Source of the DNA: an uncultured Planctomycetota bacterium
GTDB taxonomy: Bacteria; Planctomycetota; JAJSAM01; JAKLKS01
NCBI GenBank assembly: GCA_964370855.1
Contig: CAYJMF010000001.1
Span: 133,167 to 197,166 of the forward strand
DNA: 64,000 bases
Direction of reading: 5' to 3'
Positions 1,209-32,174 of this stretch are shown in pieces. The notes beneath the pieces were generated by a model. That model was not told the origin of the DNA, ran no database searches, and worked only from the letters and a program-made list of their open reading frames with translations. The position numbers and the translations under genes are program-made. The first letter of the stretch is position 1, and every line of letters starts with the position of its first letter.

Positions 1209-1225
1209 GTATCCCTTGGTGATAC
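1209..1225. repeat. GTATC-N7-GATAC palindrome, copy a
   Basis: GTATC ccttggt GATAC. Coordinates were checked against the codons of ORF 1077..1391 (..SVSLGDT..). It lies in the convergent gap between the DsbA-like gene and the GNAT gene. It is one of four sites with identical architecture. Confidence 0.6.
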
Positions 1226-1263
1226 GCAGCGTCGACCGCCTCGGCTTCGTCGGGGGGCCTCCC

Positions 1264-1851
1264 CTACCCGCCGCCGCCGGGGACCGCGATGTCGACGGCG
1301 ACCTCCGGGGACCGCACCTCCCCCGGATCCGCCACCCGCGGCCCGAGGGGCCGCTCCCAGAATCCGACGTCGTGCCACGTTCCGAACTTGAAGCCCACGG
1401 CCCGGAAGACGCCGACGGGCGAGAGCCCCGTCGCCTCGTGGAGGCGGACGCTCGCGGGGTTCGGCAGGGTGATGCCGGCGACGGCGGTGCGGAACCCCTG
1501 CGCCTCGAGCAGCGGGAAGAGGACGCCGTAGAGCGTCCGGCCCACGCCGCGGCCCCGGGCCCCCTCGGCGACGTACACCGAGGTCTCCACGGTGAAGCGG
1601 TAGGCGGGCCGGTCCCGGAAGGGGGAGCCCCAGGCGAAGCCGAGGACCTTCCCCCCCTCCTCGTGGACGAGGCAGGGCGCGAACCCGCGCCGCGCCGCCA
1701 GGCGCGCGCGGAACTCCTCCGCGCCGGGGGGGACGAGTTCGAAGGAGATGGCGGTGTCGCGGACGACGGGGTCGTAGATCGCGGCCATCGCCTCCGCGTC
1801 CCCCGGGAGGGCGGTGCGGATGCGGGCGGCGCGGGAGGGCTGCGGGGCCAT
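1264..1851 (-). CDS. GNAT N-acetyltransferase, phosphinothricin/methionine-sulfoximine acetyltransferase-like
   Basis: This is the inner part of ORF 1264..2493(-). The start is taken at ATG 1851 (MAPQPSRAARIRTALPGD..); an alternative ATG is at 1863. It has the acetyl-CoA loop 'VYVAEGARGRGVGRTLY'. 'IYDPVVRDTAISFE' and 'FKFGTWHDVGFWE' fit the PAT-type GNAT pattern. Confidence 0.85.
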   Translation of the reverse strand: MAPQPSRAARIRTALPGDAEAMAAIYDPVVRDTAISFELVPPGAEEFRARLAARRGFAPCLVHEEGGKVLGFAWGSPFRDRPAYRFTVETSVYVAEGARGRGVGRTLYGVLFPLLEAQGFRTAVAGITLPNPASVRLHEATGLSPVGVFRAVGFKFGTWHDVGFWERPLGPRVADPGEVRSPEVAVDIAVPGGGG

Positions 1852-1918
1852 GGGACGGCGCATCCTATCCGGCGGCCGAGGGATGGCAAGCGGGAGCCTC
1901 ACGGGGTAGAACCTCCCC

Positions 1919-2476
1919 ATGGCCCGCATGGTCGCGCTGCTCCGCGGCATCAACGTCGGCGGGCACCGGAAGGTGCCCATGGCAGACCTCCGCGCCCTCG
2001 CCGGTGAGCTGGGCTTCCGCGACGAGATGACCTGGATCCAGAGCGGCAATCTCGTCTTCGGATCCCCCCTCGGCCCGGATGCCGCCGCGGCGAAGCTCGC
2101 GCGGGGAATCGAGGAGCGGTTCGGCTTCCCCGTGGACCTCGTGGTCCGGACCGGGGAGCAGTGGAAGAAACTCGCCGCCGGGAACCCCCTCCCGGATGAA
2201 TCCGCCTCCGCGCCGGACCGCGTGATGCTCCTCCTGTCGCGGGAACCCCCGCTCCCCGGCGCCGCCGCCGCCCTCCGCGAGCGGGCCCGGGACGGCGAGC
2301 GCATCGAGGCCGCCGCCGGCGCCCTCTGGATCCACCACCCCGGGGGGGCCGGGAAGTCCCGCCTGTCGCCGGCTCTCGTGGACCGCCTCGTCGGCTCCCC
2401 GACGACGGCGCGGAACTGGACCACGGTGCGGGCGATCGGGGAGCTGCTCGAGGGGCGGATCCCGTCGAAGCGGTGA
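1919..2476 (+). CDS. DUF1697 family protein
   Basis: ATG start. 'MVALLRGINVGGHRKVPMADLRAL' at the N-terminus and 'TARNWTTV' near the C-terminus are the hallmark motifs of DUF1697. Length is 185 aa. Confidence 0.85.
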   Translation: MARMVALLRGINVGGHRKVPMADLRALAGELGFRDEMTWIQSGNLVFGSPLGPDAAAAKLARGIEERFGFPVDLVVRTGEQWKKLAAGNPLPDESASAPDRVMLLLSREPPLPGAAAALRERARDGERIEAAAGALWIHHPGGAGKSRLSPALVDRLVGSPTTARNWTTVRAIGELLEGRIPSKR

Positions 2477-2563
2477 CGGGCATCGCACCACATTGACCGC
2501 GGGGAGTTGCAGAGCGGGGGAGCCTGTCACCGACCCGGTCGCCGATCGCGCGGGGATCCACCC

Positions 2564-2593
2564 ATTGCATATGCATTTGCACATGCATGAATC
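2564..2593 (+). promoter_or_regulatory. Candidate promoter/operator of the Phd/YefM gene (TGCA x4 at 6-nt phase)
   Basis: Locally AT-rich ATTGCATATGCATTTGCACATGCATGAATC. TGCA cores sit at 2566, 2572, 2578 and 2584, exactly 6 nt apart. It contains the palindromes TGCATATGCA and CATGCATG. TTGCAT-17 nt-TGAATC could act as -35/-10. It ends 58 nt upstream of the antitoxin start. Confidence 0.35.
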
Positions 2594-2651
2594 ACGGGTA
2601 CACTCCGGCCGTTCGGCGACGGCCCCCGCATCGGACCACGGAGGAGATCCC

Positions 2652-2897
2652 GTGAAGACGGTCAGCGTGCGAGACCTCCAGAAGACCCTGCGCAAGCGGG
2701 TCGAGGAGAGCCAGAAGGAGCGCGTGGTCGTGACCCGGCACGGGCACCCGGCCGCGATCCTGATCGGGGTCGAGGGGATGGACTGGGAGCAGGTCCTCCT
2801 CCAGACCGACGCCGCCTTCTGGCGGATGATCCAGGCCCGCCGGAAGGAGAGGGCCGTCCCCCTCGCCAAGGTGAAGAAGCGGCTCGGAATCCGGTAG
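2652..2897 (+). CDS. Phd/YefM-family type II antitoxin (no cognate toxin gene adjacent)
   Basis: GTG 2652 lies in frame inside ORF 2493..2897, with GGAGGAG ending 5 nt upstream. The 81-aa product 'VKTVSVRDLQKTLRKRVEESQKERVVVTRHGHPAAILIGVE..' fits the Phd/YefM N-terminal pattern (..ItrhG.P.AvL..). Confidence 0.75.
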   Translation: MKTVSVRDLQKTLRKRVEESQKERVVVTRHGHPAAILIGVEGMDWEQVLLQTDAAFWRMIQARRKERAVPLAKVKKRLGIR

Positions 2898-2900
2898 GGA

Positions 2901-2931
2901 GGCATTGCCCGGGTCCGGCCCGGGTGATGCC
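2901..2931. terminator. GC-rich hairpin between convergent genes
   Basis: ggcat-tg-cccggg-tccgg-cccggg-tg-atgcc. It lies directly after the antitoxin stop (2895-2897) and before the stop of the minus-strand gene at 2964. There is no U-tract, so function is inferred from position only. Confidence 0.3.
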
Positions 2932-2963
2932 ACGGCGGCCGGGACGACCCTCCCACCGGAGCG

Positions 2964-5900
2964 CTACTCCACGCGCACGACCCCGCCCGCCGGCACCTCG
3001 AACTCCCGAACCACCGTCCAGCCCCGCGGGTCGTTCCACGAGGTGGACACCTTCGGAATGCGGCGGACGAGCCGGACGCGACCCGCGGGCATCCGGGGGA
3101 CGGCGAACTTCCCGTCCGCCCCCGCCGTCACGACGGCGGAGGCCCAGCGCCCCCCCTCCCCCTCCCACACGCAGGCGAAGGGCGCCAGCGAGGCGTCGAC
3201 CGTCCCCTCCACCCGGCCGAGGGGGAGCTCCAACATCCACGGGTTCTCCCCGGGCAGGAGTTCCACCGCGTCGAAGACGCGGAGGATCCCCTCGGGACCG
3301 CCAAGCGCCACCCGCCACGGGCCCGGAGCGGCGGCGGGAATCGAAAAGACCCCGTCGGCGCCGAGGGTGGCTGTCGCCGGGATCGCGGCGTAGGTCGCGT
3401 CGGGAATCGCGTCCACGGGGGAGAGGAGCCCCGCCGTCCAGCCCGCCGCGCCGCCGGGACCCTCCACGGACAGCCGCCCGCGGAGGACCGCCACCCCTTC
3501 CCCCGTCAGGTCGAGATCGCGCGTGACGGTGCGCCCCTCCTCCACGGCGCAGTTCCACCGGAACTCGCTCGTGCCGGGCCCGAAGGCCCCGCCGTCCCGC
3601 GCGGGCACGAGGCGGTCGTACTGCTGGAGGATCCAGGGCCCGGGGAGGAGCCCCTCGAAGCGGTAGCGCCCGTCGGCCCCCACGCGGAGGGACCGCGGTC
3701 GGGCGTCCCCGCGGTGGAGGGCCACGATGACCCCGTCGGGGCTCCGCCCCGCCGGCATCCGGACCTCTCCCGTGAGTGTCCCGCCCCGCCCGAGGGGAAT
3801 CTCGATGCCGGACACGCCGCCGGCGGGATCGAAATCGAAGGGCCCCGCCTCCGCCGGCGCGAAGCCGTCGGCCTCGACGCGGACCACGTATCGACCGGCG
3901 TTCTTCAGCGGCAGGGTGAACGCCCCCTCCGGTCCGGAACGCGCCTCGGCCTTGGGGTCGGGGTACCAGCGGAGGGGGAGCCCGTCCACGGTGGCCTTGG
4001 ACCCCGCTCCCACGACGGACAACGCCGCCACGCGGGCCCCGGGCACAGGGCTCTCCCCGTCGAGAACCCGCCCCTCGAGGGCGGCGACGGGATCGAGAAC
4101 GCACTCCACCGCGTCGGGCCCGGTGAGGGGGTCGAAGGGGCCGAGTTCCCGGTCCGCGAAGCCGGGGGCGCTCACCTCGATCTTGAAGGGGAAGCCCGGC
4201 GCCAGGAACTCCGCGGTGCCCTCATGATGCTCCCCCGGCGGGACGCCGAAGAAGGAGTCAAAGCGGACCGCAGCGGGAGTCAGGTGGGCGCGCCACGAGA
4301 TGACGGGCTCCCCGGTCCGGCTCCTGATCGAAAGTGCCACGCGGCGCGGCGCCGGGAACCTCATCTCGACGTCCCGATCCCCGGGATGGAGAGGCCAGGC
4401 GAGGGATGCTCCCCAGCGCCGATAGGGGTCCTTCACGAGCAAAGTGACCGTTCCCTGGTAGGCGGTGGGTATGCGGAACCGGCCGTCGGGCCCCCTATCC
4501 ACCTTCTGCGTGTTCAACCTGCCGGGTGCCTCGATGTGGGCGGAGAAGTCCAACGGATCCTTCAGGACGGTTCCATCGGGTGCCAGGACTCGCCCCTCCA
4601 CCCAGTCCTCGGGCCGCTCCGTTTCGATGCGAAGGTCCGTCCGCGCCTCCGTCCCGGCGCCGACCTCCACGGGATCGCTGCGCCCCGCGCGGTAGCCCGT
4701 ACGCCCCGCCCAGAGGTGCACCGTGCCCGCGGGCACGCCCTCCAGCAGGAACCCTCCCGTCCCGTCCGTGGCAGCGGGAACCCCGTGCGTGAGAATCTCC
4801 CGCCCGAGGAGGCGCCGCTCCTCGACGGGGCCCTTCGCACGTTCCGTCGCCTCCAGCCCGACCCACGCATCGGCAACCGGGGCGCCCTCCCCGTCGAGGA
4901 CCCGGCCGGCGATGGAGCCACCGGGACCGAGGGGGATGTCGCCGAGGGCCAGTTCCCGCTCCGCCACCACCCTGACGGCGAGGGCCCGGGTCTCCCTCCC
5001 GACGGCGGCCACGACCAGGGTGACGCGGTACTCCGTCTCCGGCCGCTTCCGCCATCCGGCCATGGGCGGCAGGGCGACGGCGAGCCGGCAGACGCCGTCC
5101 GGCCCCGTCCGCGCGCTCCCCTCGCCGTCCCCGGGCAGGATCGAGATCCGGGCACCTTCGATCGCCCTCCCCGTCTCCTCCACCACGCGCCCCGTCACCG
5201 TGAAGGGGATGCTCTCCGCCTTGAAGGAGGGTCCGCGCGGCTCGACGGGGGCGATGGCCGGGGGGGCGAGGGCCCCGGTTGAATCCCCGGGAGTCGGCCC
5301 CTTCCCCCCGGTCCCCTCCCCAAGAGCCGGGTCCGCTGTCCTATGGGGCCGGGGGGAATCCCCCGGCCCCCGCCAGAGGAGCCCCGCCGCGATAAGCACG
5401 CCCCCCGCCCCCCCCCCCGCCTTCGCCGCGGTCCCCATGAGAAGCCCTCCTCCCGTCGCCGCCGCCGCGGCCCCTCCCGCGGTTCCGGCCGCGGTCGGTA
5501 CTCCCTGTTCGCGCGCCAGCGGCAGCACGATCGCCATCCACGCTGCGCGATTCCCGCCGTTCTCCGCGTCGAGCCGCTCCCGAAGGAGTTCGAGGGCCCG
5601 CTTCAGCCGCCAGCGCACCGTCCCCTCCGGCGTTCCCTGGCGCCGCGCGATCTCCACGGAGGACATCCCCTCGTGGAAGCGGAGGAGGACCGTCGATCGA
5701 AACGGCTCCTCCAGGCCGGCGACGAGGGCCGCGAGCCGGCGCGCCGTCTCGAGGCGGGACGCCAGCTCCTCCGGCGACGGAAGCGGGGAGCGCTCCGGCC
5801 GGGCGGCGGCCTCCTCCCTCCGCTCCCTCCGGCCCGACTCGCGGAGGTCACGCCTGCGGAAGTTGCGCAGGACCGTGGCGAGCCAGGGGCGGACCGGTCC

Positions 5901-6056
5901 CCGGTCGTCGGGCGGGTGCTCCAGGGCGGCGAGCCAGGTCTCCTGGACCAGGTCGTCGGCGGCCGCGGAGTCCCGCACGAGGGACGCGGCGAAGGCCCGG
6001 ATCCACCCGGCGTGGGCCAGGAGGTCCTCGATCCGGACGGGAGCGGGCTCGGGCAT
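2964..6056 (-). CDS. ECF sigma factor fused via a hydrophobic segment to a ~800-aa CarboxypepD_reg-like repeat ectodomain
   Basis: ATG 6056. The N-terminal ~165 aa carry sigma-70 region 2 (DDLVQETWLAALEH, RPWLATVLRNF) and region 4 (STVLLRFHEGMSSVEIARRQGTPEGTVRWRLKRALELLRERL). A Gly/Ala-rich hydrophobic stretch follows (GGLLMGTAAKAGGGAGGVLIAAGLLW). The rest is repeated 'GRV(V/L)..G.P..GA.V .. DG.F.I.GL..G' modules. Confidence 0.85.
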   Translation of the reverse strand: MPEPAPVRIEDLLAHAGWIRAFAASLVRDSAAADDLVQETWLAALEHPPDDRGPVRPWLATVLRNFRRRDLRESGRRERREEAAARPERSPLPSPEELASRLETARRLAALVAGLEEPFRSTVLLRFHEGMSSVEIARRQGTPEGTVRWRLKRALELLRERLDAENGGNRAAWMAIVLPLAREQGVPTAAGTAGGAAAAATGGGLLMGTAAKAGGGAGGVLIAAGLLWRGPGDSPRPHRTADPALGEGTGGKGPTPGDSTGALAPPAIAPVEPRGPSFKAESIPFTVTGRVVEETGRAIEGARISILPGDGEGSARTGPDGVCRLAVALPPMAGWRKRPETEYRVTLVVAAVGRETRALAVRVVAERELALGDIPLGPGGSIAGRVLDGEGAPVADAWVGLEATERAKGPVEERRLLGREILTHGVPAATDGTGGFLLEGVPAGTVHLWAGRTGYRAGRSDPVEVGAGTEARTDLRIETERPEDWVEGRVLAPDGTVLKDPLDFSAHIEAPGRLNTQKVDRGPDGRFRIPTAYQGTVTLLVKDPYRRWGASLAWPLHPGDRDVEMRFPAPRRVALSIRSRTGEPVISWRAHLTPAAVRFDSFFGVPPGEHHEGTAEFLAPGFPFKIEVSAPGFADRELGPFDPLTGPDAVECVLDPVAALEGRVLDGESPVPGARVAALSVVGAGSKATVDGLPLRWYPDPKAEARSGPEGAFTLPLKNAGRYVVRVEADGFAPAEAGPFDFDPAGGVSGIEIPLGRGGTLTGEVRMPAGRSPDGVIVALHRGDARPRSLRVGADGRYRFEGLLPGPWILQQYDRLVPARDGGAFGPGTSEFRWNCAVEEGRTVTRDLDLTGEGVAVLRGRLSVEGPGGAAGWTAGLLSPVDAIPDATYAAIPATATLGADGVFSIPAAAPGPWRVALGGPEGILRVFDAVELLPGENPWMLELPLGRVEGTVDASLAPFACVWEGEGGRWASAVVTAGADGKFAVPRMPAGRVRLVRRIPKVSTSWNDPRGWTVVREFEVPAGGVVRVE

Positions 6057-6152
6057 CCTCGAACATCATGCCGCCGGGGGCGGGATCGTTGGCGGCCGCA
6101 TCGGAACGGCCGGGGTGAAGAGGGCGGGCCGCCGTGGTAATCTCGGGGCATC

Positions 6153-6899
6153 GTGGCCACGGCGACCCGACCCCGTCCGGATGCGGCGCGCTTCTCCTCC
6201 ATCGAGGACCCCCGGGAGATTCCCGCCTACGGAATCCCGGAGGCGGCCCTCTACCTGCGGATCCCCCGCGCCACGCTCCGGTCCTGGGTGTTCGGACGCC
6301 CCTACCGCGTGAAGTCCGGGGCGGCCCGGTTCGAACCTCTCATCCGGCCCGCCTCGGAGGACGGGGTGCGGCTCCTGTCGTTCATGAACCTCGTCGAGGC
6401 CCACGTCCTGTCCGCCATGCGCCAGGAGTTCGGAGTGGACCTCGCCGCCGTTCGACGGGCCCTCGATTTCCTCGAGAAGAGGAGGCCGTCGAAGCATCCC
6501 CTTGCCGACAGGTCCTTCGAGACGGACGGGCAGGACCTGTTCATCCGCGAGCTCGGACAGCTCGTGGCCGCCTCCGACGACGGCCAAAGGGGGATGCGCG
6601 AGGTCCTCGACGCGCACCTGAAGAGAATCGTCCGCGACGAGCGGGGCGCGGCCCTGCGCCTGTTCCTGTTCACGCGGGGCGGGGTCCACGCGCCCGACGC
6701 CCCGCGGGTGGTGCTCGTGGACCCGGGGGTCTCCTTCGGCCGCCCGGTACTGGCGGGGACGGGCATCCCGACCGCCGTGATCGCGGAGAGGTTCAAGGCG
6801 GGGGAGGCCATCGCCGACCTGGCCGCCGACTACGACCGGAGCCCCGGGGACATCGAGGAGGCCCTCCGGTGTGAGCAGTCCTTCCAGCGGGCCGCCTGA
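6153..6899 (+). CDS. HTH + DUF433 domain protein (antitoxin-like)
   Basis: The N-terminal part has an excisionase/MerR-like HTH (IPEAALYLRIPRATLRSWV). The C-terminal 'GRPVLAGTGIPTAVIAERFKAGEAIADLAADYDRSPGDIEEAL' matches the DUF433 pattern. Confidence 0.75.
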   Translation: MATATRPRPDAARFSSIEDPREIPAYGIPEAALYLRIPRATLRSWVFGRPYRVKSGAARFEPLIRPASEDGVRLLSFMNLVEAHVLSAMRQEFGVDLAAVRRALDFLEKRRPSKHPLADRSFETDGQDLFIRELGQLVAASDDGQRGMREVLDAHLKRIVRDERGAALRLFLFTRGGVHAPDAPRVVLVDPGVSFGRPVLAGTGIPTAVIAERFKAGEAIADLAADYDRSPGDIEEALRCEQSFQRAA

Positions 6900-7290
6900 C
6901 GAACCGGTCTTCTGCATCGACGAGGCCCTCGGGAAGAGGGTCGTTCCCGACGCCCTCCGCACGGCGGGGGTGCGCGTGGAACTCCTCATCGATCACCACC
7001 CGCGGGGGACGGCCGATGCCCTGTGGCTCCCCGATATCGGCCGCCGCGGGTGGGTGGTCCTGACGAAGGACAAGAACATGAAGCGCCGCCCCGCGGAGCA
7101 GCTCGCGGTGGTGAGGAACGGCGTCCGCGCCTTCTCCCTCACGACGGGCGACCTGACGGGACCGGAGATGGCGGACGCGTTCCTCCGCGCGATGCCGTCG
7201 ATCCGGAGGCTCCTCCGGCGCCACCCCGGCCCCTTCATCGCCTCGGTGACGCGAGCCGGACGCGTGGAGATCGTCTACCCGGCGGTATGA
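6871..7290 (+). CDS. PIN-like / DUF5615 (Mut7-C-like) domain protein, putative toxin partner of DUF433
   Basis: GTG 6871 overlaps the upstream gene by 29 nt. 'VFCIDEALGKRVVPDALRTAGVRVELL.. ADALWLPDIGRRGWVVLTKDKNM' fits the DUF5615 pattern (..DE.L..l...L...G..v.... D..i...a...g.vlvTkDkdf). Confidence 0.65.
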   Translation: MSSPSSGPPDEPVFCIDEALGKRVVPDALRTAGVRVELLIDHHPRGTADALWLPDIGRRGWVVLTKDKNMKRRPAEQLAVVRNGVRAFSLTTGDLTGPEMADAFLRAMPSIRRLLRRHPGPFIASVTRAGRVEIVYPAV

Positions 7291-7327
7291 GACGGGCACC
7301 GCCCTCCTTCGAGCCGTTCCCCCCGGC

Positions 7328-9613: not shown

Positions 9614-12600
9614 ATGACCGGACGCGGCGCCCTCCTTGGCGGCGGACTGCTCGCCCTCGCGATCCTCGGGGGCGTCGTCCTGTACCTCGACGGGAAGACG
9701 GAACCCCCGGTGCCGGGTCCCGCCGCACCCGGGGCGCCCCACGCCCCCGCTCCGGCCTCGCCCTCCCCCGCCGCACCCCCGCCCGACGCCCCCGCGGCGC
9801 CGCCCCTCGAGGGGGGCCCCGGCGCCGTCGTCGGACGCCTCGTGCGCGGTTCCCCGCCCACCCCCGTCCCCGGCCGCGTGACCGTCGCCGGCCCCGGCGG
9901 CGCCGCGGCCGCCGCTACGGTGGACGCCACCGGCCTCTTCCGCCTCGCCGGCCTCCCCGCCGGGACGCCGCTCGCCTTCGAGGCGACGTCACCGGGCCTC
10001 CTCCCCCACCGCCTCCCCTGGGTGCGCCTCGCCGCGGGGGATCCCCTCGACCTCGGCGACCTCGCGCTCGGCGCCGGCACCGCCGTCGCGGTGGAGGTCG
10101 CCGACGGCCGCGGGCGGCCCATCTCCGGCGCCTCCGTCACCCTGCGACGGTGGCCGGCGGGGGCTTTCCTGGGCTCGGTCCCCTCCGAGTACCCCGAGGA
10201 CTCCGCCGTCCCGCCCTCCCTCCGGGCCTCCACCGGTGCGGAGGGTAGGGTCGTCCTCGAGGGGACCCCGCCGGGCCCGTGGAGGGTCGAGGTCGCCGCC
10301 GCGGGGTTCGCGCCGCGGGAGGAGTCCTTCACCGTCGTGGAGGGGCGGGCCGCCGCGCCCCTCCGCTTCCTCCTCCTCCCGGCCCTGGCCCTCGCCGGGA
10401 GAGTATCAATCTTTGATACACCTGCGGAGGGGGCGGTGGTCGAGGCCGTGGAGCGGAACTTCATGCGCCGGGTCCGCTCGCGGCCCGCGGACGCCGACGG
10501 CGGCTACCTCCTCGAGGGGCTCGACGCCGGGCGGTGGACCCTCTCCGTGTGGCCGACGCCGGACACGGAGGTCTGCGTCGGCGGCCTCGACCTCCCGGGC
10601 CTCGATCGGTTCGACATCCGCCTCCCCGCGGGCGGGCGTGTCCTCGGCACCGTGCTCGACGACGCCACCGGGGCTCCGGTCCCCGGCGCCCTCGTCACCC
10701 TCCGCACCGACGGGGCGGGCTTCCTCGATGACTCCGCGGCGACGCGGACCGACCCCGACGGGCGGTTCTCCCTCGACCACCTCCCACCCGACGTTCCGAA
10801 CATCACCGGGTTCTCCGTCACCGCCACCGGGTTCCTCGACTTCCCCGACGGGCGGTCGGAGCCCGTCGTCCCGGAGGCGGCCCTGTTTCCGGGAACCGCT
10901 GATGGGATCGTGGTCCGCCTCCGCCGCGGCGCCGCGGTGGTCGGGAGGGTGCTGGATCCCGAGGGGCGGCCGGTTCCCGGGGCCCGGGTCTCCCTCTTTT
11001 CATCGATTGGCGGAGGGGAGAGTGGTTTCTCCACCCCCGCCCTTGCCGACGTGGAGGGAAGGTGGCGGCTGGAGCCGGTGGAGCCGGGGACGGGGATCCT
11101 GCTCGTGGCAGCGCCGGGCTTCTGCCAGGAGGAGTTCCCCGCCGATCCTGCCGCGGCGCTGTCCACGGGGACGGCCCCGGCCTCCTGGACCGTGGAGGTG
11201 CCGGCCTCCGGGGAGGCGCGGAAGGACCTCGTCCTCTCCCGCGGGGGCGCCATCGAGGGAACGGTCGTGGACGCCGACGGGGCGCCGATGGCGGGCGCGG
11301 CGATCTCCTGCCACCCGGAGGGGAGATGGGACGAACTCGGGACCGCCGGCCCCTCCGACGGGGAGGGGCGGTTTCGCGTCGCGGGGGTCCCCTCCGGTCG
11401 TGCCCTGGAGGTGTCGGCGTCCCTGCCCGACCGCCCCGACGGCCGGTCCGAGCCCCTCACCCTCGGCCCCGGGGAGACGAAGCGCGATCTCCGGATCGTC
11501 CTTCCCGCACCGGCAGCCCTCGCCGGGATCCTCCGGCGGGAGGACGGCACCCCGCTCCGGGCGCCGCGCCTCAGGATCGTGGACGGGGAGCCCGAGGACG
11601 GTGCCCTCGATCCGATGATCCTGGGGATGGCCGCGTACCGCCCCGTGGCCCCCGACGGGAGTTTCCGCGTCGAGGGCCTGGACGCCGGCACCTGGACGCT
11701 GGCGGCGGAGGACGAGGGGTGCGCCCTCGCCGTCGGCCCCGTGGTGGTCCTCGGCGAGGGGGAGCGGCGGGAGGAACTCGAGGCGATCCTCCCCGCGGGG
11801 ATGTCCATCGCCGGCCGCGTCGTGGACGGGAAGGGGGCGCCGCTTCCCGGGGCGGTCGTTCTCGTCGCGAGGGTGTTCGAGAAGTACTCCACCGCGAGCG
11901 TCCTCTCGGACCTCCACGCGCCGGCGGCCTCGGCGATCACGGGCGAGGACGGCGCCTTCCGGAAGGAGGGGCTCCCTCCCGGGCCCCATTCCGTCACGGT
12001 GCGCGCGGACGGCACGCGGGAGCGTTCGGTGGAGACCCCGGCCGGGACTGCCGACCTCCTCATCGTCATGGAGAGCGGATTCTCCGTCGCGGGGAGGGTC
12101 GTGGACGCCGAGGACGGCCGCCCCGTGGCCGGGGTCCGGGTGACGGCCCGGCCCCGGGGACCCCGCGGTTTCAGCGAGGCGCGGGAGACGGTGAGCGGCG
12201 GGAACGGGGAGTTCCTCCTCGACGGGCTTCCCGAGGGCGGCGTGGACCTCCGGTTCGACCCGGAGTCGGGGGGGAAGGTCGGGGGGTACGGGGCGAAGAC
12301 GGTGCGGGGCGTGGCGGCGGGCACTTCCGGGCTCGAGGTGGCGCTCCCGCGGGGTCTCGCAATCGCGGGGAGGGTCGTGGACGAGGAGGGGAGGGCGATC
12401 GCCTCCGCCCTCGTGATCCACGCCGTCGGGAGGGGCGACGACGGCGAGATCCTGTTCGCCACCGTCACCCGGGAAGGGAGCGTCGACGGGTCCTTCCTCG
12501 TCGGGGGCCTCTTGCCGGGCACGTACTCCCTCACCGTATCGAGTTCTCCCGACTACCTGTCGGCGACCGAGCGCGGCCTGCGGTCAGGGACCGAGGGCGT

Positions 12601-13159
12601 CGTCGTCGTCCTGCGCCGGACGGGCCGGATCTCCGGCCGGGTCGTCGACGGGGACGGACTGCCGGTCGGAAGCGGTGTCCCCGTGGCGGCCGACTTCCGG
12701 GGTGCGGGGAAGGAAGTCGCAGGGGCCCATGGGCGCACGGAGACCGGGGCGGACGGCTCCTTCTCCATCGGGATGCTCGGCCCCTACCGGTTCCGGCTGA
12801 CGGCGGGGGGGGGGAACCGGTGCGACTTCCTTCCCTCGGCGCATCCCGGGGACGTGGCCGTCGGCACCACCGACGTGGAGATCCGCGCTGCCCGTGGCGC
12901 CTCCCTCTCGGGGATGCTCCGCGATGCCGCGGGCGCCGCGGTGAGGGGAGTGGCTGTGCGGGCCCGGACCGGGGAGTTCGTCGAGGCCTGGCTCGTCTCG
13001 GACTGGCAGGAGGTGGACGACGACGGCGCCTTCCACCTCCGCGGACTTCCGCCCGGCACGGTGACCCTGGAGGTCCGGGCCGGGGACGGGGAGACGATCC
13101 CTCTCGGTGAGTGGACCGCCCCGGGGGAGAACCTCCGGGTGGTGATTCCGGAGCGGTAG
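9614..13159 (+). CDS. Membrane-anchored CarboxypepD_reg-like repeat protein (paralog family)
   Basis: ATG 9614 (MTGRGALLGGGLLALAILGGVVLYL = TM helix); an alternative ATG is at 9554. A Pro/Ala linker is followed by more than 10 modules 'GRVVD..G.P..GA.V...TD..G.F.L..L..G.Y'. Confidence 0.8.
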   Translation: MTGRGALLGGGLLALAILGGVVLYLDGKTEPPVPGPAAPGAPHAPAPASPSPAAPPPDAPAAPPLEGGPGAVVGRLVRGSPPTPVPGRVTVAGPGGAAAAATVDATGLFRLAGLPAGTPLAFEATSPGLLPHRLPWVRLAAGDPLDLGDLALGAGTAVAVEVADGRGRPISGASVTLRRWPAGAFLGSVPSEYPEDSAVPPSLRASTGAEGRVVLEGTPPGPWRVEVAAAGFAPREESFTVVEGRAAAPLRFLLLPALALAGRVSIFDTPAEGAVVEAVERNFMRRVRSRPADADGGYLLEGLDAGRWTLSVWPTPDTEVCVGGLDLPGLDRFDIRLPAGGRVLGTVLDDATGAPVPGALVTLRTDGAGFLDDSAATRTDPDGRFSLDHLPPDVPNITGFSVTATGFLDFPDGRSEPVVPEAALFPGTADGIVVRLRRGAAVVGRVLDPEGRPVPGARVSLFSSIGGGESGFSTPALADVEGRWRLEPVEPGTGILLVAAPGFCQEEFPADPAAALSTGTAPASWTVEVPASGEARKDLVLSRGGAIEGTVVDADGAPMAGAAISCHPEGRWDELGTAGPSDGEGRFRVAGVPSGRALEVSASLPDRPDGRSEPLTLGPGETKRDLRIVLPAPAALAGILRREDGTPLRAPRLRIVDGEPEDGALDPMILGMAAYRPVAPDGSFRVEGLDAGTWTLAAEDEGCALAVGPVVVLGEGERREELEAILPAGMSIAGRVVDGKGAPLPGAVVLVARVFEKYSTASVLSDLHAPAASAITGEDGAFRKEGLPPGPHSVTVRADGTRERSVETPAGTADLLIVMESGFSVAGRVVDAEDGRPVAGVRVTARPRGPRGFSEARETVSGGNGEFLLDGLPEGGVDLRFDPESGGKVGGYGAKTVRGVAAGTSGLEVALPRGLAIAGRVVDEEGRAIASALVIHAVGRGDDGEILFATVTREGSVDGSFLVGGLLPGTYSLTVSSSPDYLSATERGLRSGTEGVVVVLRRTGRISGRVVDGDGLPVGSGVPVAADFRGAGKEVAGAHGRTETGADGSFSIGMLGPYRFRLTAGGGNRCDFLPSAHPGDVAVGTTDVEIRAARGASLSGMLRDAAGAAVRGVAVRARTGEFVEAWLVSDWQEVDDDGAFHLRGLPPGTVTLEVRAGDGETIPLGEWTAPGENLRVVIPER
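10403..10419. repeat. GTATC-N7-GATAC palindrome, copy b (inside a CDS)
   Basis: GTATC aatcttt GATAC, encoded as codons gta tca atc ttt gat aca (V284-S-I-F-D-T289 of ORF 9554..13159). It is a conspicuous AT-rich island inside GC-rich coding sequence. Confidence 0.6.
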
Positions 13160-17957: not shown

Positions 17958-18006
17958 GGGTGCCGGCGGACCCCCACGCGATGGCGGTCCCGCCGGAACG
18001 GCAATA

Positions 18007-18023
18007 GTATCAGATTATGATAC
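18007..18023. repeat. GTATC-N7-GATAC palindrome, copy c
   Basis: GTATC agattat GATAC (extended arms aGTATCA/TGATACt). It lies in the convergent gap between paralogs 14322..17957(+) and 18117..21938(-). Coordinates were checked against the C-terminal codons of ORF 18010..18411(-). Confidence 0.6.
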
Positions 18024-18116
18024 TTTCGCCCTCCCCCTCCAGGACGCGGGACGGGACGGGGGAGTGGTCGGGAGGGCGGGGATCGGCGGGAACTGCGGGG
18101 AGGAGCGGGAGCCGCG

Positions 18117-24719: not shown

Positions 24720-25067
24720 ATGAAGACACCGGCGGTGTCGGTCCTGTACTTCCTCCTCGCCTCGCTCCTCGGGGCCGCGGGGCAGTTCCTCTACAAGGCC
24801 GGCGCCGAGCGCGCCGGCGGCTCCCTCCTCTCCTACGTCCTCAACGGGAGGATCCTCGCCGGCGTCGCCTGCTACGCCGCCGTCATGGTCCTCTTCGTGG
24901 CCGCCTTCAGGAAGGGGGGCTCCCTCACCGTCCTCTACCCCGTCTACGCCACGACCTTCATCTTCGCCGCGCTCCTGGCCCTCGTCCTCCACGGCACCCC
25001 CGTCCGCCCCGCCAACGTCGCCGGGATGATCCTCCTCGTCGCGGGCATGTACCTCATGGGTCGCTGA
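24720..25067 (+). CDS. Small 4-TM DMT/EamA-like (SMR/ArnE-like) membrane protein
   Basis: 115 aa and entirely hydrophobic helices (..LYFLLASLLGAAGQFLYK.., ..LYPVYATTFIFAALLALVL.., ..VAGMILLVAGMYLM). It is the first gene of the lipid operon. Confidence 0.7.
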   Translation: MKTPAVSVLYFLLASLLGAAGQFLYKAGAERAGGSLLSYVLNGRILAGVACYAAVMVLFVAAFRKGGSLTVLYPVYATTFIFAALLALVLHGTPVRPANVAGMILLVAGMYLMGR

Positions 25068-25075
25068 GCCCCGCC

Positions 25076-26715: not shown

Positions 26716-26717
26716 GC

Positions 26718-27446: not shown

Positions 27447-27469
27447 CGGGAGACGGGCAGAAGGGAGCC

Positions 27470-28672
27470 ATGGGAATCACCTCCTCCCGGATGGCGGCGC
27501 TGGCCATTCCCCTGCTCCTCCTCGCGGCCTGCTCGACGGGGAGCGCCTTCACCGCCGCCGCGGCGCCGCCGCGGGGGACGCCCGGGGAGACGGGCATCTC
27601 CTTCTTCCACGAGGGAGCGGAGGTCGCCCTCGAGGAGGGCGTCCCTCCCGGACTCCGGACCCTCCCCCCCGACCTCGGCCCCCGGCCCCGGGGAGTCCTC
27701 CTGCCCACGCCCCTCGGACGGTACGCGGTCCTCGTGGACGCGGCGGATCCCGCCCGGCCGCCGCGGATGTGGGTGGACGCGGCGGGGGACGGCGACCTCG
27801 CCGCCGACGCGCCGCTGTCCGGGGAGTGGCACGAGGGCAGGACGGCCTACGTCTCCGGGGAGGCGATTCTCCGTCTGCCGGCGCCCGGCGCGGGGACCCG
27901 CGGTTTCCCCCTCCACCTCTCCTGCCGCGTTCCCCTCGACGGGCCGGCGACCCTCGAGGTCGTGGCGGCGGAGTGGCTCCTCGGGCGCGTCCCCCTCGGG
28001 GGGCGGGAGTTCCCCTTCGCCCTCCGCGACGCCGACGGGGACGGGGACTACTCGCGGATCGCGGGCGTCGAGATCGGGTTCGATCGGGACGGGGACGGCG
28101 TCATCGACGGCGGCCGGGAGTTCGGGGAGTGCTACGCCGCCGACGGTCGCTTCGACCTCGGGACCGGCACGTTCCGGATCTCCTCCATCGCGGAGGACGG
28201 TTCGGCGGTGACCTTCGAGCCGGCCTGGCCGGCCGCGGCGGTGCGGCCCTTCCTCGGGGTCGGCGACCCGGCGCCCCCCATCCCGGGGACCGACCTCGAC
28301 GGCCGCCCCATCTCCCTCGAGGAGTACCGTGGCCGCACCGTGCTCCTCCTCTTCTGGGCGGAGTGGTGAGGACCGTGCGTCGGGGAGATCCGTGAGATCT
28401 CCGGGGACAGGGAGGCCATCGAGAAGGCGTTGGGCGGAGTCGTCGTCGGAGTCTGTCTCGACGAGGACGCCGCCAGGGCGCGCGCCTTCCTCGCCGCGGA
28501 GGGGAACCCCTTCCGCTCCGCCTTCAACGGCGGCTTCTGGAACGGGACCGTGGCGCGCGCCTACGGCGTCCAGGCGATCCCGAGGAGCTTCCTCATCGGC
28601 CCCGACGGGAGGATCCTCCGGCGGGAGGTGTTCCCGTCGATGCTCCTCGAGGAGGCGGGGGCCGGGCGCTGA
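27470..28672 (+). CDS. Lipoprotein with C-terminal TlpA/ResA-like thioredoxin fold; in-frame TGA (28367-28369) at the first Cys of CxxC (selenocysteine candidate, or pseudogene)
   Basis: ORF 26726..28369 and ORF 28430..28672 are in the same frame and separated only by TGA. Read-through gives 'GRTVLLLFWAEW-U-GPCVGEIREI..VVVGVCLDED..GVQAIPRSFLIGPDGRI', a complete TlpA-like domain whose WCxPC motif has TGA at the first Cys. Start ATG 27470 has AAGGGAG upstream (alternative ATG 27443 overlaps the plsC-like stop). Lipobox 'LLLLAAC'. Confidence 0.6.
28379..28408 (+). other. SECIS-like hairpin downstream of the in-frame UGA
   Basis: Lower stem gtc/gac (28379-81 / 28406-08), internal loop, 7-bp upper stem ggagatc/gatctcc (28384-90 / 28396-402), apical loop cGUga. 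The loop lies 22-26 nt after the UGA and contains GU, as in bacterial SECIS models. Confidence 0.4.
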
Positions 28673-28723
28673 CGGAATCCCGGCGTGGAGCCGCGCCCGC
28701 CCCCGGTGTACCCTCCTCCTCGC

Positions 28724-30214: not shown

Positions 30215-30241
30215 TGAGGGACCGGAGGGGGCCCCCGCTCC

Positions 30242-32059
30242 CTACTTCCCCGCCTTCCCGCCCCACTCGATCCACTCCTTCTCCAGGTCGGCGAGCTTGA
30301 CGCCGAGGGCCTCCTCGAGGGCCGCCGCGCGCCCGGCCGGTTCCACGGGGGTGCGGGCGATCTTCGGCAGCACCTCCCTCCACTTCTCCGAGCGGGGGCC
30401 GCGGGAGACGAAGGCGTAGAAGGCGCCCGCCTGCAGGAAGAGCGCCTCCGAGGTCCCGGCGCCGCCGGAGGCGTCGTCGCGGGCGTAGAGGTCGGGGATC
30501 GCCACGAACTCCGCGAGCGGGACGAACGTTCCCGTGCGCAGGTTCGGCGCGAACTCCGCCGCCGCGTCCCCCTTCTCCCAGGCCCTCTCCACGAGGACCG
30601 CCATCCCCTCCTGCAGCCAGGAGCCCCCCTCCTTCCCGCGGCCCCGGTGGAAGAGGGAGTGGACCAGCTCGTGGACCATCTGCGAATCCTCCGGCGCGCG
30701 GTAGGAGAGGACGATGCCGCGGGCGTTGCCGACGGCCGTGAGGCGCGCCGCCGCCCCCTCCGACCACCGCCACTCCCGCACGAGGAACTTCTTCAGCGTC
30801 TCCGGGTTCTGGAAGCAGTAGACGGGGATCGCCCGGTCGAGCTCGGGGAGCGCGAGGAGCTTCCGGGCGAACTCGTGGGCCTTCTCCAGCCCCGCGGGGA
30901 GCTTCGCCGCGGCGGCCGAGGAATCGGTGTAGAGATCGAAGTGGGCCGAGGGGCGGTGCATCCCCTTTCCGGCCTTCCTGTCCCCGAAGAGCATCCGGCA
31001 GACCTCCTCCTCGGAGAGGGTCCACCCCCCCTTGCCGCGGACGAGCTCGACGTCGTCGAGGAGGAGCACCCCCTTCACGGGCTTGAAGACGAAGATGCCG
31101 AGGTCCTCGCACCGGTCGGCGTCGAAGCTCCCCTGCTCGCGCATCTTCGGGATCTGGATCTCCACGGTCTGCCACTTCCGGCCCGGCTTCGGCACCTGCT
31201 CGGTGAGCGCGTTGGTGAATCCCGTCTGCAGCTTCACCTCCAGGGGCTGCGAGTCGTCGCCCTCGGCCCGGACCTTGAACCGGATGGTCCGGTAGTCGCG
31301 CAGGTTCCTCGGCAGGTCGAGGAAGTAGAGGGCCGCGGGGTCCGTCGTCCCGTCGATCTCCCAGCGCAGCACCGCCTTCTTCTTCTCGGGAACGGCGGCG
31401 ATGGTCCCCCCCTTGAAGTCGATGCGGTCGCCGACGGCGGGGTCCTCGAAGTCGTCGAGGACCCAGGCCGGCTCCATCTCCCGCGCCCGCCGCTCCGGGG
31501 AGATCTCCGTGGTCCGCTCGAGGACGACGTCGTCCACGAGGTACTCCCCCTTCCCCGGCTTCAGCAGGGTGAGGTCGATGCGGACGACCTTCGCGGGATC
31601 GTAGGCGCCCCTCACCGGCGTGCGGGCGAGGTCCACGGCGAAGGTCGTCCACTTCTCCGTGATGCCGGGGATGCGGAGGTAGGTCTCGTCCGTCGTCGTC
31701 GTGAAGACGCGGAGGTAGACCATCCCCGCTCCCGGGCCCTCGCGGCGGATGCGGAAGCGGACGCACTTCCAGGGGGAGAAGTCGGCGGGGAGGTTCTTGA
31801 ACTGGAGGGCCGCCTCCTCCCCGTTCCCCGGCAGGGTCCAGCGGGCCACGCGCCCGGGGCCGTCGTCGGGGTCCGGGACGGACCGGTACCCGCAGCCCTT
31901 GATGAGGATCTTCGCGTCGAGGGCGGGATCCTCGAAGTCGGCGACGACGAACCGCTCCCCGTCCGGGGGGTCGCCGTCCCCCGCGGGGGATGCAGGGGGC
32001 GTGGCCGCCAGCACCGCAAGCGCCGCCGCCGCCGCGAAACGAAGCATCGCGATCCTCAT
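30242..32059 (-). CDS. Secreted protein: two CBM/jelly-roll-like modules + C-terminal HExxH domain (DUF1570 / peptidase-MA-like, tentative)
   Basis: ATG 32059. Signal peptide MRIAMLRFAAAAALAVLAA. Duplicated 'DFEDPA..(I/D)..KG..' modules. C-terminal 'MVHELVHSLFH' (HExxH) followed by 'WLQEGMAVLVE', as in DUF1570-type proteins. Confidence 0.7.
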   Translation of the reverse strand: MRIAMLRFAAAAALAVLAATPPASPAGDGDPPDGERFVVADFEDPALDAKILIKGCGYRSVPDPDDGPGRVARWTLPGNGEEAALQFKNLPADFSPWKCVRFRIRREGPGAGMVYLRVFTTTTDETYLRIPGITEKWTTFAVDLARTPVRGAYDPAKVVRIDLTLLKPGKGEYLVDDVVLERTTEISPERRAREMEPAWVLDDFEDPAVGDRIDFKGGTIAAVPEKKKAVLRWEIDGTTDPAALYFLDLPRNLRDYRTIRFKVRAEGDDSQPLEVKLQTGFTNALTEQVPKPGRKWQTVEIQIPKMREQGSFDADRCEDLGIFVFKPVKGVLLLDDVELVRGKGGWTLSEEEVCRMLFGDRKAGKGMHRPSAHFDLYTDSSAAAAKLPAGLEKAHEFARKLLALPELDRAIPVYCFQNPETLKKFLVREWRWSEGAAARLTAVGNARGIVLSYRAPEDSQMVHELVHSLFHRGRGKEGGSWLQEGMAVLVERAWEKGDAAAEFAPNLRTGTFVPLAEFVAIPDLYARDDASGGAGTSEALFLQAGAFYAFVSRGPRSEKWREVLPKIARTPVEPAGRAAALEEALGVKLADLEKEWIEWGGKAGK

Positions 32060-32157
32060 GGAGGCCTCCTCCCTTCGACATCGTGGAGATTAGGGGGAAT
32101 GCCCCCGGGGATCGAGGGCGAACCGGGGACCGGCGTGACCGGAGACGGGGATCCATT

Positions 32158-32174
32158 GTATCCCCTTATGATAC
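32158..32174. repeat. GTATC-N7-GATAC palindrome, copy d
   Basis: GTATC cccttat GATAC. It lies 28 nt past the stop of the sigma-fusion gene (32202) and about 100 nt upstream of the ATG of 30242..32059. On the minus strand it overlaps a TACAAT hexamer (32155-32160). Coordinates were checked against codons of ORF 32056..32628(-). Confidence 0.6.

Follow-up and report, generated by a model that had tools for sequence, protein, structure and literature searches.

The window analysed here, a 64,000-nucleotide stretch of DNA, contains four exact copies of the palindrome GTATC-N7-GATAC, with the coordinates and sequences that the initial annotation had given them (Table 1). Site (a), for which the annotation had given no gene context, lies inside a 197-nucleotide convergent gap between a DsbA/VKOR gene (plus strand, ending at 1066) and a GNAT acetyltransferase gene (minus strand, ending at 1264), 38 nucleotides past the GNAT stop according to the frame plot and the called genes. 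Nine assemblies made from other samples carry it unchanged. Site (b) was correctly placed in frame within a CarboxypepD_reg paralog, where it encodes VSIFDT, written with the rare codons GTA, TCA, GAT and ACA; it is a perfect 7-3-7 palindrome, GTATCAA-TCT-TTGATAC. Site (c) is located, as annotated, in the convergent gap 17958-18116 (159 nucleotides) of two CarboxypepD_reg paralogs, one on the plus strand ending at 17957 and the other on the minus strand ending at 18117, and is flanked by two G+C-rich hairpins. Site (d) is found 27 nucleotides past the stop of an ECF-sigma/CarboxypepD_reg fusion gene (32202..) and 98 nucleotides ahead of the ATG of the gene at 30242..32059, both positions agreeing with the annotation, and the GATACAAT noticed there on the minus strand is present. 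No promoter-like (sigma-70-like) or terminator-like consensus was found around this site (31950-32300). The gene at 30242..32059 had been labelled 'DUF1570-like', a name we do not retain because Pfam gives no match for it. No tRNA, tmRNA or Rfam match was obtained for the window sites.

Table 1. Copies of GTATC-N7-GATAC in the window
Site	Sequence	Position	Strand	Description
(a)	GTATCCCTTGGTGATAC	1209..1225	.	Exact match
(b)	GTATCAATCTTTGATAC	10403..10419	.	Exact match, within CDS 9614..13159 (+)
(c)	GTATCAGATTATGATAC	18007..18023	.	Exact match
(d)	GTATCCCCTTATGATAC	32158..32174	.	Exact match; tandem gap, minus-strand genes

The palindrome occurs far above chance, as first proposed: four copies in the window compare with a mean of 0.01, and four was reached in 0 of 100 dinucleotide-preserving shuffles. 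The composition of 72-73% G+C guessed for the window was near the actual value (70-77% along its length, about 74%). The non-redundant same-species DNA, 225.9 kb on separate contigs sampled around one gene family, holds nine exact sites, a small and biased sample, against an expectation of 0.007-0.017 sites in block shuffles retaining local composition; the observed frequency is about 500 times that expected. Among all 5-N(0-15)-5 palindromes, GTATC-N7-GATAC is by far the top outlier (log10 P about -27), and the second and third outliers are sub-patterns of it. Together, the shuffle controls and this ranking rule out chance or base composition as the origin of the sites. The motif is also exact. 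One-mismatch variants number two in the same-species DNA versus about 0.9 expected from a rough calculation, and allowing up to two mismatches in the window adds five matches, for a total of nine versus 6.2 expected; both counts are at chance level, which excludes a degenerate motif family. Spacing is fixed as well: among the same-species sites, no spacing between 4 and 10 other than 7 was found. Full-text literature searches yielded nothing relevant on the palindrome sequence. For a genome of several Mb, the density of about one site per 25 kb would extrapolate to a few hundred copies.

Taken together, the nine sites define a longer palindromic unit, W-GTATC-A-N5-T-GATAC-W, with an A after GTATC in seven sites, a T before GATAC in seven, and W on either flank. 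The centres of GTATC and GATAC are 12 bp apart, so that the two-fold symmetric half-sites stand about one helical turn from each other. The T before GATAC had been taken as the mark of one orientation shared by all sites. This was an artefact of looking at four copies: the conserved T is half of the inner A/T palindromic pair, and there are same-species sites outside the window that carry G or A at this position.

The sites are not distributed evenly with respect to genes. Three of the nine lie in convergent 3'-3' gaps, one follows a stop codon by 27 nucleotides and five are in coding sequences, while none is in a divergent promoter gap, though such gaps total 3.4 kb. Convergent gaps represent 0.92% of the DNA, as computed over the 192.5 kb with compiled gene maps, yet hold three of nine sites (P = 6e-5); among the four intergenic sites, three are convergent (P = 0.008). 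At locus L021, the convergent gap is 27 nucleotides long and consists almost entirely of the motif. A stop codon precedes the site by at most 50 nucleotides in four cases of nine, and a start codon follows within 350 nucleotides in only two, one of these being a site at L017 located 323 nucleotides upstream of a sigma-fusion gene. The coding sites occur 420-1550 nucleotides into their coding regions, within variable linkers. The proposed tie to the paralog family holds in so far as all but one of the nine sites fall inside a paralog gene or no more than 350 nucleotides from one. It is suggestive only: paralog-linked DNA makes up about half of the sample by a rough estimate rather than a count, giving a binomial p of about 0.02, and the paralog genes also provide long unconstrained linkers, an alternative reason for the association.

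Within coding regions, selection on the palindrome acts at the nucleotide level. Peptides of the form VSxxDT occur six times in 51,865 codons, and four of the six are spelled with GTATC-N7-GATAC, although each of the codons GTA, TCA and ACA serves just 1-2% of its amino acid. The paralogs do not conserve the peptide, and this, together with the rarity of the codons, rules out a protein-level cause for the coding sites. Two paralogs at locus L018, with 73% DNA identity, retain AGTGTATCACAA[G/A]GTGATACAT at 22 of 23 positions, a block that is embedded in a diverged low-complexity linker. Here DNA-level selection prevails over an extreme codon bias.

Are these sites classical operators, through which a local or global transcription factor would control initiation nearby, notably at the sigma-fusion and CarboxypepD_reg paralogs? 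The palindromic 5-7-5 (or 6-5-6) geometry fits such a role, as do the proximity of eight of nine sites to paralog genes, the position of two sites upstream of genes (98 nucleotides for site (d) and 323 for the L017 site, the latter ahead of a sigma-fusion gene), and the presence of the same sequence ahead of higBA operons in viral contigs. However, two of nine sites upstream of a start is, in our judgement rather than by computation, near random placement; three sites fall in convergent gaps, which have no promoters, five are deep in coding sequences and none is in a divergent gap. Site (d) shows no promoter-like consensus, none of the sites adjoins a regulator gene among the called genes, the absence of degenerate variants would be unusual for a regulon, and in a relative the site is missing at the ortholog of the gene that follows (d). 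We therefore consider a classical operator quite unlikely. The annotation had suggested operators bound by a dimeric HTH regulator; a two-fold symmetric HTH dimer is still the most plausible reader, while the promoter role is not supported by the sites' locations (three in convergent gaps, one after a stop, five in coding sequences, none divergent). Because they are found between converging genes and inside genes, and not at promoters, the sites look like binding sites other than an ordinary gene switch.

Comparison with relatives was uninformative as to conservation, given the distances involved: at about 47-52% protein identity, orthologous positions have no site. The DNA of relatives whose proteins are roughly 50% identical, about 37 kb in all, contains no site. 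The sigma-fusion ortholog (52% identity) sits in another neighbourhood, with no site in 24 kb, and relatives that share the gene following (d), at 47% identity, have it in another gene order, again with no site. An ortholog of this gene at 94% identity is on a contig that holds just 31 nucleotides of upstream DNA. The species-representative genomes include no close relative, the best match reaching 25-28% identity. Querying JGI metagenomes with a sigma-domain alignment returned only distant ECF sigma loci, with no motif in 605 kb; 112 kb of this DNA exceeds 68% G+C, and the set serves as a negative control and not as a conservation test.

A further alternative is an RNA element. In this scenario, an RNA-binding protein or a ribonuclease would read the hairpin GUAUC(A)...(U)GAUAC at the 3' ends and in the coding regions of mRNAs, with a role in processing, stability or factor-dependent termination. 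All nine sites are in probably transcribed DNA, and as the motif is palindromic, transcripts of the two strands form an identical stem, which both converging transcripts would carry. Four sites are within 50 nucleotides after a stop, the 27-nucleotide gap at L021 is essentially the hairpin alone, and the geometry is a stem of 5-7 bp with a loop of 3-7 nucleotides. Against this, the stem is weak, at about -4 kcal/mol, and is not followed by a U-tract; with 5-7 AU-rich pairs and no T-run, the sites are not intrinsic terminators, as the annotation had already argued from the short stems. The genome does not lack canonical terminators, since they are found elsewhere, such as the G+C-rich terminator with its T-run at L021:21675-21717. 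RNA folds around the sites are ordinary compared with shuffles in six of seven stretches (z from -0.95 to +0.5), and the seventh, the minus strand at site (c) (z = -2.56), owes its stability to the flanking G+C-rich helices and not to the motif; special RNA structure at the sites was therefore rejected. In addition, the stem shows neither compensatory nor wobble variation, the sequence itself being fixed, and there is no Rfam match. We regard an RNA element as unlikely.

Another explanation is that the sites are targets, ends or scars of a recombinase or transposase, involved in domain shuffling among the paralogs or belonging to a REP-like family. They are located where insertion is least harmful, in convergent gaps and variable linkers, and are associated with paralogs that diversify rapidly; the genome also contains at least one further palindromic element that is dispersed. 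Some sites also resemble one another beyond the palindrome: flank similarity exceeds that of 99% of random pairs for site (d) with L018b and for site (c) with L019, and the exact L017 site has 15 of 17 bases, spacer included, in common with a one-mismatch site 6.7 kb away, the two being carried by proteins of 612 and 712 amino acids that are not homologous. Inverted arms are present, as in a recombination site, yet the spacer between them is different at almost all sites and no crossover core is shared; the annotation was right to discard a recombination site of this kind. The unit is only 17-19 nucleotides long, without conserved flanks or target duplication, and no recombinase or Y1-transposase stood out among the Pfam annotations of genes called near the sites. 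At L018, homology between the paralogs fades gradually in the hypervariable linker with no switch of partner at the site, which does not support a recombination breakpoint between them, and the arrangement around site (a), the one compared, is the same across assemblies from many samples. An extended repeat or MITE is excluded in turn by flanks that do not align (the two site pairs above are mildly similar) and by the absence of any partner motif or k-mer within 200 nucleotides. REP and BIME elements are likewise dispersed palindromes that favour post-stop positions and gaps between converging genes. REPs, however, are 20-40 nucleotides long, G+C-rich, strictly extragenic, present in many copies with a conserved head, often clustered and accompanied by a RAYT (Y1) transposase, whereas the present unit is 17-19 nucleotides long and AT-rich, with a stem of 5-7 bp, and five of nine copies are in coding sequences. 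We rejected REP/RAYT membership on the size of the unit, these coding copies and the unconserved flanks. A recombination or mobile-element origin is thus very unlikely.

The exact half-sites, the fixed length and free sequence of the spacer and the unconserved flanks also recall a bipartite target of the kind recognised by DNA methyltransferases or restriction-modification enzymes. Such targets are expected at or below their compositional frequency, and here the frequency is about 500-fold above it. Ten specified bases exceed the known specificities of these enzymes. No DNA methyltransferase gene was found among the Pfam annotations of the fetched DNA, and the bias towards convergent gaps would be left unexplained; this identity appears extremely unlikely.

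Which protein could read the palindrome? The annotation put forward the Crp-like gene at 62522..63172, but nothing ties it to the palindromes. The closest copy is over 30 kb away, and the half-sites and spacing of Crp/FNR-type sites are different. Both this gene and an ORF with a weak HTH_31 match (44693..45238) are more than 12 kb from the sites, none of the called genes at the sites is an adjacent regulator gene, and no candidate binder was found in the fetched same-species loci. Viral contigs suggest that the sequence can be read by a protein. The palindrome TGTATCAC-N3-GTGATACA immediately precedes higB-higA operons in viral contigs of high GC; written as TGTATCAC-N3-RTGATACA, which contains GTATC-N7-GATAC, it is found 10-15 nucleotides upstream of higB-higA in seven such contigs; the encoded proteins match a HigB-like toxin (1e-14) and an HTH_3 antitoxin (1e-9). 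The viral operators thus have the same core sequence and spacing, and a symmetry suited to an HTH dimer. With the same palindrome ahead of viral higBA, a Cro/C1-type HTH dimer is plausibly the reader in our species, by analogy. TATC-type half-sites are known from the lambda cI/Cro operators (TATCAC) and the HipB operators (TATCC-N8-GGATA). The differences are that each viral element has one site, in a promoter gap, while the sites here are dispersed, off promoters and without higBA nearby, and that the inner bases (AC/GT), fixed in the viral sites, are variable here. Although the sequence is the same, we rejected the identification of our sites as HigA operators, since they lie outside promoters and no HigA or HigB homolog was found in the window or the same-species loci.

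The reading that we favour, tentatively and with a probability of roughly 45%, is that the palindromes are putative high-affinity targets of a DNA-binding protein, dimeric and sequence-specific, that acts away from promoters. That they are enriched, exact, fixed in spacing, selected at the nucleotide level and biased in position is shown; we infer both the dimer that would read these sites on DNA and its role. The binder would be a single protein with two-fold symmetry, probably an HTH dimer reading a TATCA-type half-site. Selection at the nucleotide level keeps the sites, in places harmless for promoters and for constrained codons: convergent gaps, positions after stops, and the linkers of large surface-protein genes. 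As the sites spare promoters and constrained codons, the protein would not act through a classical promoter operator but may serve as a bound obstacle or a landmark. Its role might be to insulate gene ends or to stand there as a roadblock in both directions; alternatively, the palindrome might be a chromosome-organising site like parS, matS or the Noc-binding sites. That the palindrome docks a dedicated protein in this deep-branching Planctomycetota-related lineage is a doubtful proposition, which we offer as a speculation: the protein would mark or insulate gene ends as a symmetric roadblock where transcription units converge, or organise a chromosomal domain as matS/MatP or parS/ParB do, with a sequence unrelated to theirs and probably a reader that is likewise unrelated and Xre-like.

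Dispersed exact palindromes that avoid promoters are the sequence signature of parS, matS, Noc and SlmA sites and of phage stoperators. The sites of ParB (parS), MatP (matS), Noc and SlmA are exact short palindromes, present in a handful to a few dozen copies per region, in coding and non-coding DNA alike, with few mismatches tolerated and no tie to promoters; our sites resemble them in exactness, dispersal over coding and non-coding DNA, and independence from promoters. The half-site TGTATCAC is one base off the parS half-site TGTTTCAC. However, parS (TGTTNCACGTGAAACA) is a 16-bp palindrome with no spacer and requires a central CACGTG, while the present motif has a 3-nucleotide spacer and a variable centre, and we rejected a ParB centromere on these grounds. 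The DNA examined contains no canonical parS-like sequence (up to three mismatches), genes for ParB, Noc or MatP were not seen in it, and GC skew does not switch across the window. In mycobacteriophage L5, stoperators are many copies of a single repressor site that lie in short gaps at gene ends and block elongation as roadblocks. Our sites are likewise repeated at gene ends rather than promoters. Stoperators, however, are 13-mers without symmetry that follow the direction of transcription and occur only in a prophage, whereas the sites here are symmetric and in ordinary chromosomal DNA.

Many Planctomycetota-like lineages divide without FtsZ, and we know of almost nothing on chromosome-organising or stoperator-type systems in such lineages. 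If real, either role, gene-end insulation or domain organisation, would constitute a system undescribed in bacteria of this group. Should the motif mark gene ends or a chromosomal domain, a 19-bp bait would give a direct handle on the protein and the sites would allow a test of roadblocks between converging genes in very G+C-rich genomes; should it be the regulon of a single transcription factor, it would be an ordinary but clean case. Under either reading, the palindrome sites are a strong marker of the species.

The window contains the palindrome GTATC-N7-GATAC exactly four times, and the coordinates and sequences reported in the initial annotation all correspond to exact matches (starts at 1209, 10403, 18007 and 32158). 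That this is far above chance was confirmed by dinucleotide-preserving shuffles of the window, which contain 0.01 sites on average and never reach four in 100 trials; G+C content runs from 70 to 77% along its length. When up to two mismatches are tolerated, the window gains only five matches (nine found, 6.2 expected), so that the signal resides in the exact sites only. We then considered 225.9 kb of non-redundant same-species DNA, composed of the window and of loci fetched through paralogs of the sigma-fusion protein, a CarboxypepD_reg-repeat protein with an N-terminal extracytoplasmic function (ECF) sigma domain. The fetched loci come from the same sample series and have equal composition. 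They contain five more exact sites, for a total of nine, against 0.007 to 0.017 expected from shuffles preserving composition in 60- or 200-nucleotide blocks. Among all 5-N(0-15)-5 palindromes, with expectations derived from real 5-mer counts, GTATC-N7-GATAC stands out most (log10 P about -27). It is followed by two of its own sub-patterns, TATCA-N5 and TGTAT-N9, and the remainder are at least 20 orders of magnitude weaker. One-mismatch variants number just two, with about 0.9 expected by a rough calculation, and no spacing other than 7 was found in the same-species DNA. The motif is also absent from 605 kb of JGI metagenome ECF-sigma loci, 112 kb of them above 68% G+C. The sequence signal is thus real, very strong and clean, and it belongs to an uncultured lineage.

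Comparing the nine sites reveals a unit longer than the two 5-mers. GTATC is followed by A in seven sites, GATAC is preceded by T in seven, and 17 of the 18 flanking bases are A or T. Site (b) and both L018 sites are perfect 7-3-7 palindromes, and at least one half of every site is a perfect GTATCA. The T preceding GATAC, from which a shared orientation had been deduced, is the inner member of an A/T pair, and the L019 and L021 sites break the rule; the orientation is therefore abandoned. Outside the unit the flanks do not align: only two site pairs exceed the 99th percentile of similarity between random pairs, and no second motif recurs within 200 nucleotides of the sites.

Exact GTATC-N7-GATAC sites in the window and in same-species loci (L017 to L021), with viral higBA sites and toxin-antitoxin-like pairs
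Feature	Position	Sequence	Setting
Site (a)	1209-1225		197-nt gap between converging genes (DsbA/VKOR ends 1066, GNAT acetyltransferase ends 1264)
Site (b)	10403-10419		In frame within large CarboxypepD_reg-repeat gene 9614..13159; encodes VSIFDT
Site (c)	18007-18023		159-nt gap between two converging CarboxypepD_reg paralogs; flanked by two G+C-rich hairpins
Site (d)	32158-32174		27 nt past stop of ECF-sigma/CarboxypepD_reg fusion gene; 98 nt before next ATG, same strand
L017 site	L017:9662	GTATCAGGAAGTGATAC	Within a CDS
L018 site 1	L018:10808	GTATCACAAGGTGATAC	Within sigma-fusion CDS, past membrane helix
L018 site 2	L018:24145	GTATCACAAAGTGATAC	Paralog, position equivalent to L018:10808
L019 site	L019:10545	GTATCATGTTTGGATAC	Sigma-fusion CDS, directly past sigma region 4, another reading frame
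L021 site	L021:17382	GTATCATACTAAGATAC	27-nt convergent gap, 9 nt past sigma-fusion stop
Viral higBA site	L083:1101
Viral higBA site	L132:659
Viral higBA site	L116:2414
Viral higBA site	L053:1617
Viral higBA site	L101:4502
Viral higBA site	L140:4656
Viral higBA site	L031:7477
Toxin-antitoxin-like pair	window 2652-2897
Toxin-antitoxin-like pair	window 6153-7290
Toxin-antitoxin-like pair	window 54680-56287
Toxin-antitoxin-like pair	L016:13962-15103
Toxin-antitoxin-like pair	L017:14352-15154
Toxin-antitoxin-like pair	L021:17400-18207

Since ORF lists alone are useless in a genome of about 74% G+C, genes were mapped from third-codon-position G+C and from gene calls on public contigs with the same DNA. 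These maps agree with the initial placement of site (b) inside its gene and of site (c) between two paralogs. Site (d) does lie just past the sigma-fusion stop and ahead of an ATG, but the 'DUF1570-like' label of the following gene has to be dropped, as this gene has no Pfam match. Maps were compiled for 192.5 kb, of which 7.2% is intergenic: convergent gaps account for 1.8 kb, divergent gaps for 3.4 kb and tandem gaps for 8.7 kb. With respect to called genes, four of the nine sites are intergenic (P = 0.0025), and all four lie within 50 nucleotides past a stop codon. Three occupy convergent gaps, which represent 0.92% of the DNA (P = 6e-5, or P = 0.008 among intergenic sites), and the L021 gap is nearly all motif. 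This bias toward gene ends is unusual. No site falls in a divergent gap, and only two are found within 350 nucleotides upstream of a start codon, which, in our judgment, does not exceed what random placement would produce.

The palindrome had initially been taken for the operator of a dimeric helix-turn-helix (HTH) regulator, with a Crp-like protein as candidate. A dimeric DNA-binding protein still fits, but a promoter operator does not, given the empty divergent gaps and the lack of any sigma-70-like promoter consensus at site (d), where no terminator consensus was found either; the tie to the Crp-like gene does not stand. Eight of the nine sites lie in or within 350 nucleotides of a gene of the CarboxypepD_reg family, which has at least ten members in the window, three of them fused to an N-terminal ECF sigma domain. 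As DNA in or near such paralogs makes up roughly half of the sample, by a rough estimate, this association is only suggestive (p about 0.02), and the long unconstrained linkers of these genes provide another explanation for it.

On either side of the in-gene sites, third-position G+C remains high and in one and the same frame, so these sites are truly coding. Four of them read GTA TCN ... GAT ACA, or V-S-x-x-D-T. Over 51,865 same-species codons, the share of each codon for its own amino acid is 1.2% for GTA, 1.9% for TCA, 1.7% for ACA and 17% for GAT. Exactly these codons spell four of the six VSxxDT peptides, and a fifth corresponds to a one-mismatch site. The peptide is not conserved among 17 aligned sigma-fusion paralogs, where the sites sit in hypervariable linkers. 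The L018 paralogs, 73% identical in DNA, retain AGTGTATCACAA[G/A]GTGATACAT at 22 of 23 positions amid diverged low-complexity DNA. Codon usage and alignments thus show selection on nucleotides, not on a peptide, and this selection overrides a third-position bias of 93% G+C. The one-mismatch site, at L017:16331-16347 (GTCTCAGGAAATGATAC), encodes VSGNDT with five consecutive rare codons. Counting the spacer, it matches the exact L017 site 6.7 kb away, in an unrelated host protein, at 15 of 17 bases, and may be a decayed or copied site.

Does the palindrome act at the RNA level? We keep this as a rival reading, since all nine sites are in probably transcribed DNA and the palindrome gives both converging transcripts an identical stem. 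However, the hairpin is weak (six pairs, about -4 kcal/mol) and has no U-tract, and the surrounding RNA folds no better than shuffles in six of seven cases. The fold z-score of -2.56 on the minus strand of site (c) comes from the flanking G+C-rich helices rather than from the motif. Canonical terminators are present in this genome (for example, L021:21675-21717), and Rfam and tRNA searches came back empty. The stem never varies, whether by compensatory or wobble changes, which points to recognition of sequence and not of shape.

Exact two-fold symmetry, fixed spacing, a free spacer, unconserved flanks, strong selection and avoidance of promoters and constrained codons argue for a protein-binding site. 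In our favored reading, which we hold at slightly less than even odds (about 0.45), the nine sites would be bound with high affinity, as duplex DNA, by one dimeric, sequence-specific protein that does something other than control initiation; both this binder and its function are inferred. The protein could stand at gene ends as a symmetric roadblock or insulator, an option suggested mainly by the excess in convergent gaps; the stoperators of phage L5, repressor sites that halt elongation, provide a precedent. Alternatively, the sites could serve as landmarks for chromosome organization, of the same kind as parS, matS and Noc sites, which are also exact and sparse, are not found in promoters and occur whether or not the DNA is coding. 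A single base separates the half-site TGTATCAC from the parS half-site TGTTTCAC. Identity with parS is nevertheless ruled out by the 3-nucleotide spacer, the variable center and the absence of any canonical parS-like sequence in the DNA examined. The palindrome is best classed among the dispersed protein-binding palindromes, as a new member specific to this lineage.

A candidate type of binder is suggested by viral contigs, in which a scan for TGTATCA-N5-TGATACA produced at least 120 matches, most of them due to chance in AT-rich DNA. Among the matches listed, at least seven are in contigs of 63-73% G+C, and all seven share one context: beside a tape-measure gene there is a gene pair, with a HigB-like toxin encoded first and a Cro/C1-type HTH (HTH_3) antitoxin second, and TGTATCAC-N3-RTGATACA lies 10-15 nucleotides upstream of the toxin gene, where a higBA operator would be expected. 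It is therefore plausible that this very palindrome is bound in nature by an HTH dimer of the Xre/Cro type. TATC-type half-sites are known for lambda cI/Cro (TATCAC) and HipB (TATCC-N8-GGATA). As no HigA or HigB homolog was found in the same-species DNA examined, higBA is an analogy, not a case of membership.

Dozens of ENA metagenome assemblies (ERZ13692934 to ERZ13693180) also contain the window DNA, in contigs of up to 241 kb. Species-representative genomes contain nothing closer than 25-28% identity, and more distant named homologs of the sigma-fusion protein come from Planctomycetes metagenome-assembled genomes, plus one from Engelhardtia mirabilis, so that placement in this phylum is tentative. 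A 52%-identical homolog on a 1.66-Mb contig has a different neighborhood, with no site in 24 kb, and orthologs (47% identity) of the gene downstream of site (d) are found in a different gene order, and the 13 kb around them contain no site. These absences carry little weight, since about 1.5 sites are expected in those 37 kb at the observed density. A 94%-identical copy of the latter gene lies on a 1,964-nucleotide contig ending 31 nucleotides upstream, short of the site position.

A second, unrelated palindrome, a perfect inverted repeat of about 45 bp (arm GGGGACGTCCTCCACTTTTCTACTTTTCTGTGGATAACTCCGGAGCGGGA), is found at 62408-62519, just past the stop of the Crp-like gene (62522..63172, minus strand); the gene call on the other side (60462..62546) overlaps it. 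A related copy fills a convergent gap at L019:6694-6786. Both copies carry inverted perfect DnaA-box-like 9-mers (TGTGGATAA / TTATCCACA) and a tandem ACTTTYC repeat, and the element resembles either a hairpin of the REP/MITE type or a very strong terminator working in both directions. At 27542-28672, an AhpC/TSA-redoxin-like frame contains a single in-frame TGA (28367-28369) across which the Pfam domain continues; a second copy, at L019:6791-7321, is similarly split. The TGA may be a selenocysteine codon rather than the mark of a pseudogene.

Calls for the fusion gene at 2964-6056 (minus strand), also present in L007-L012, vary between samples, giving either one gene of 1030 or 1084 amino acids or two (744 plus 298, 304, 312 or 331 amino acids), which points to length variation or frameshifts in the linker within the population. 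Five independent assemblies stop in the 5' part of gene 9614..13159 (about 9690-10015), where the stretch at about 9690-9870 has 83-93% G+C at all three codon positions; three end just beyond this stretch and two at its edge or up to about 150 nucleotides past it. The break is at this low-complexity DNA, not at site (b). Proteins combining an ECF sigma domain, a single membrane helix, a variable linker and CarboxypepD_reg repeats form a very large expansion, often several side by side, with about 27 members in 226 kb (window, L006, L016-L021 and L228). Toxin-antitoxin-like pairs are numerous and dispersed among these paralogs (Phd/YefM, DUF433+PIN_10, AbiEii+DUF6088, PIN+Phd and a DUF6036 nucleotidyltransferase), and the stop codon of the DUF6036 gene directly adjoins the L021 motif site.
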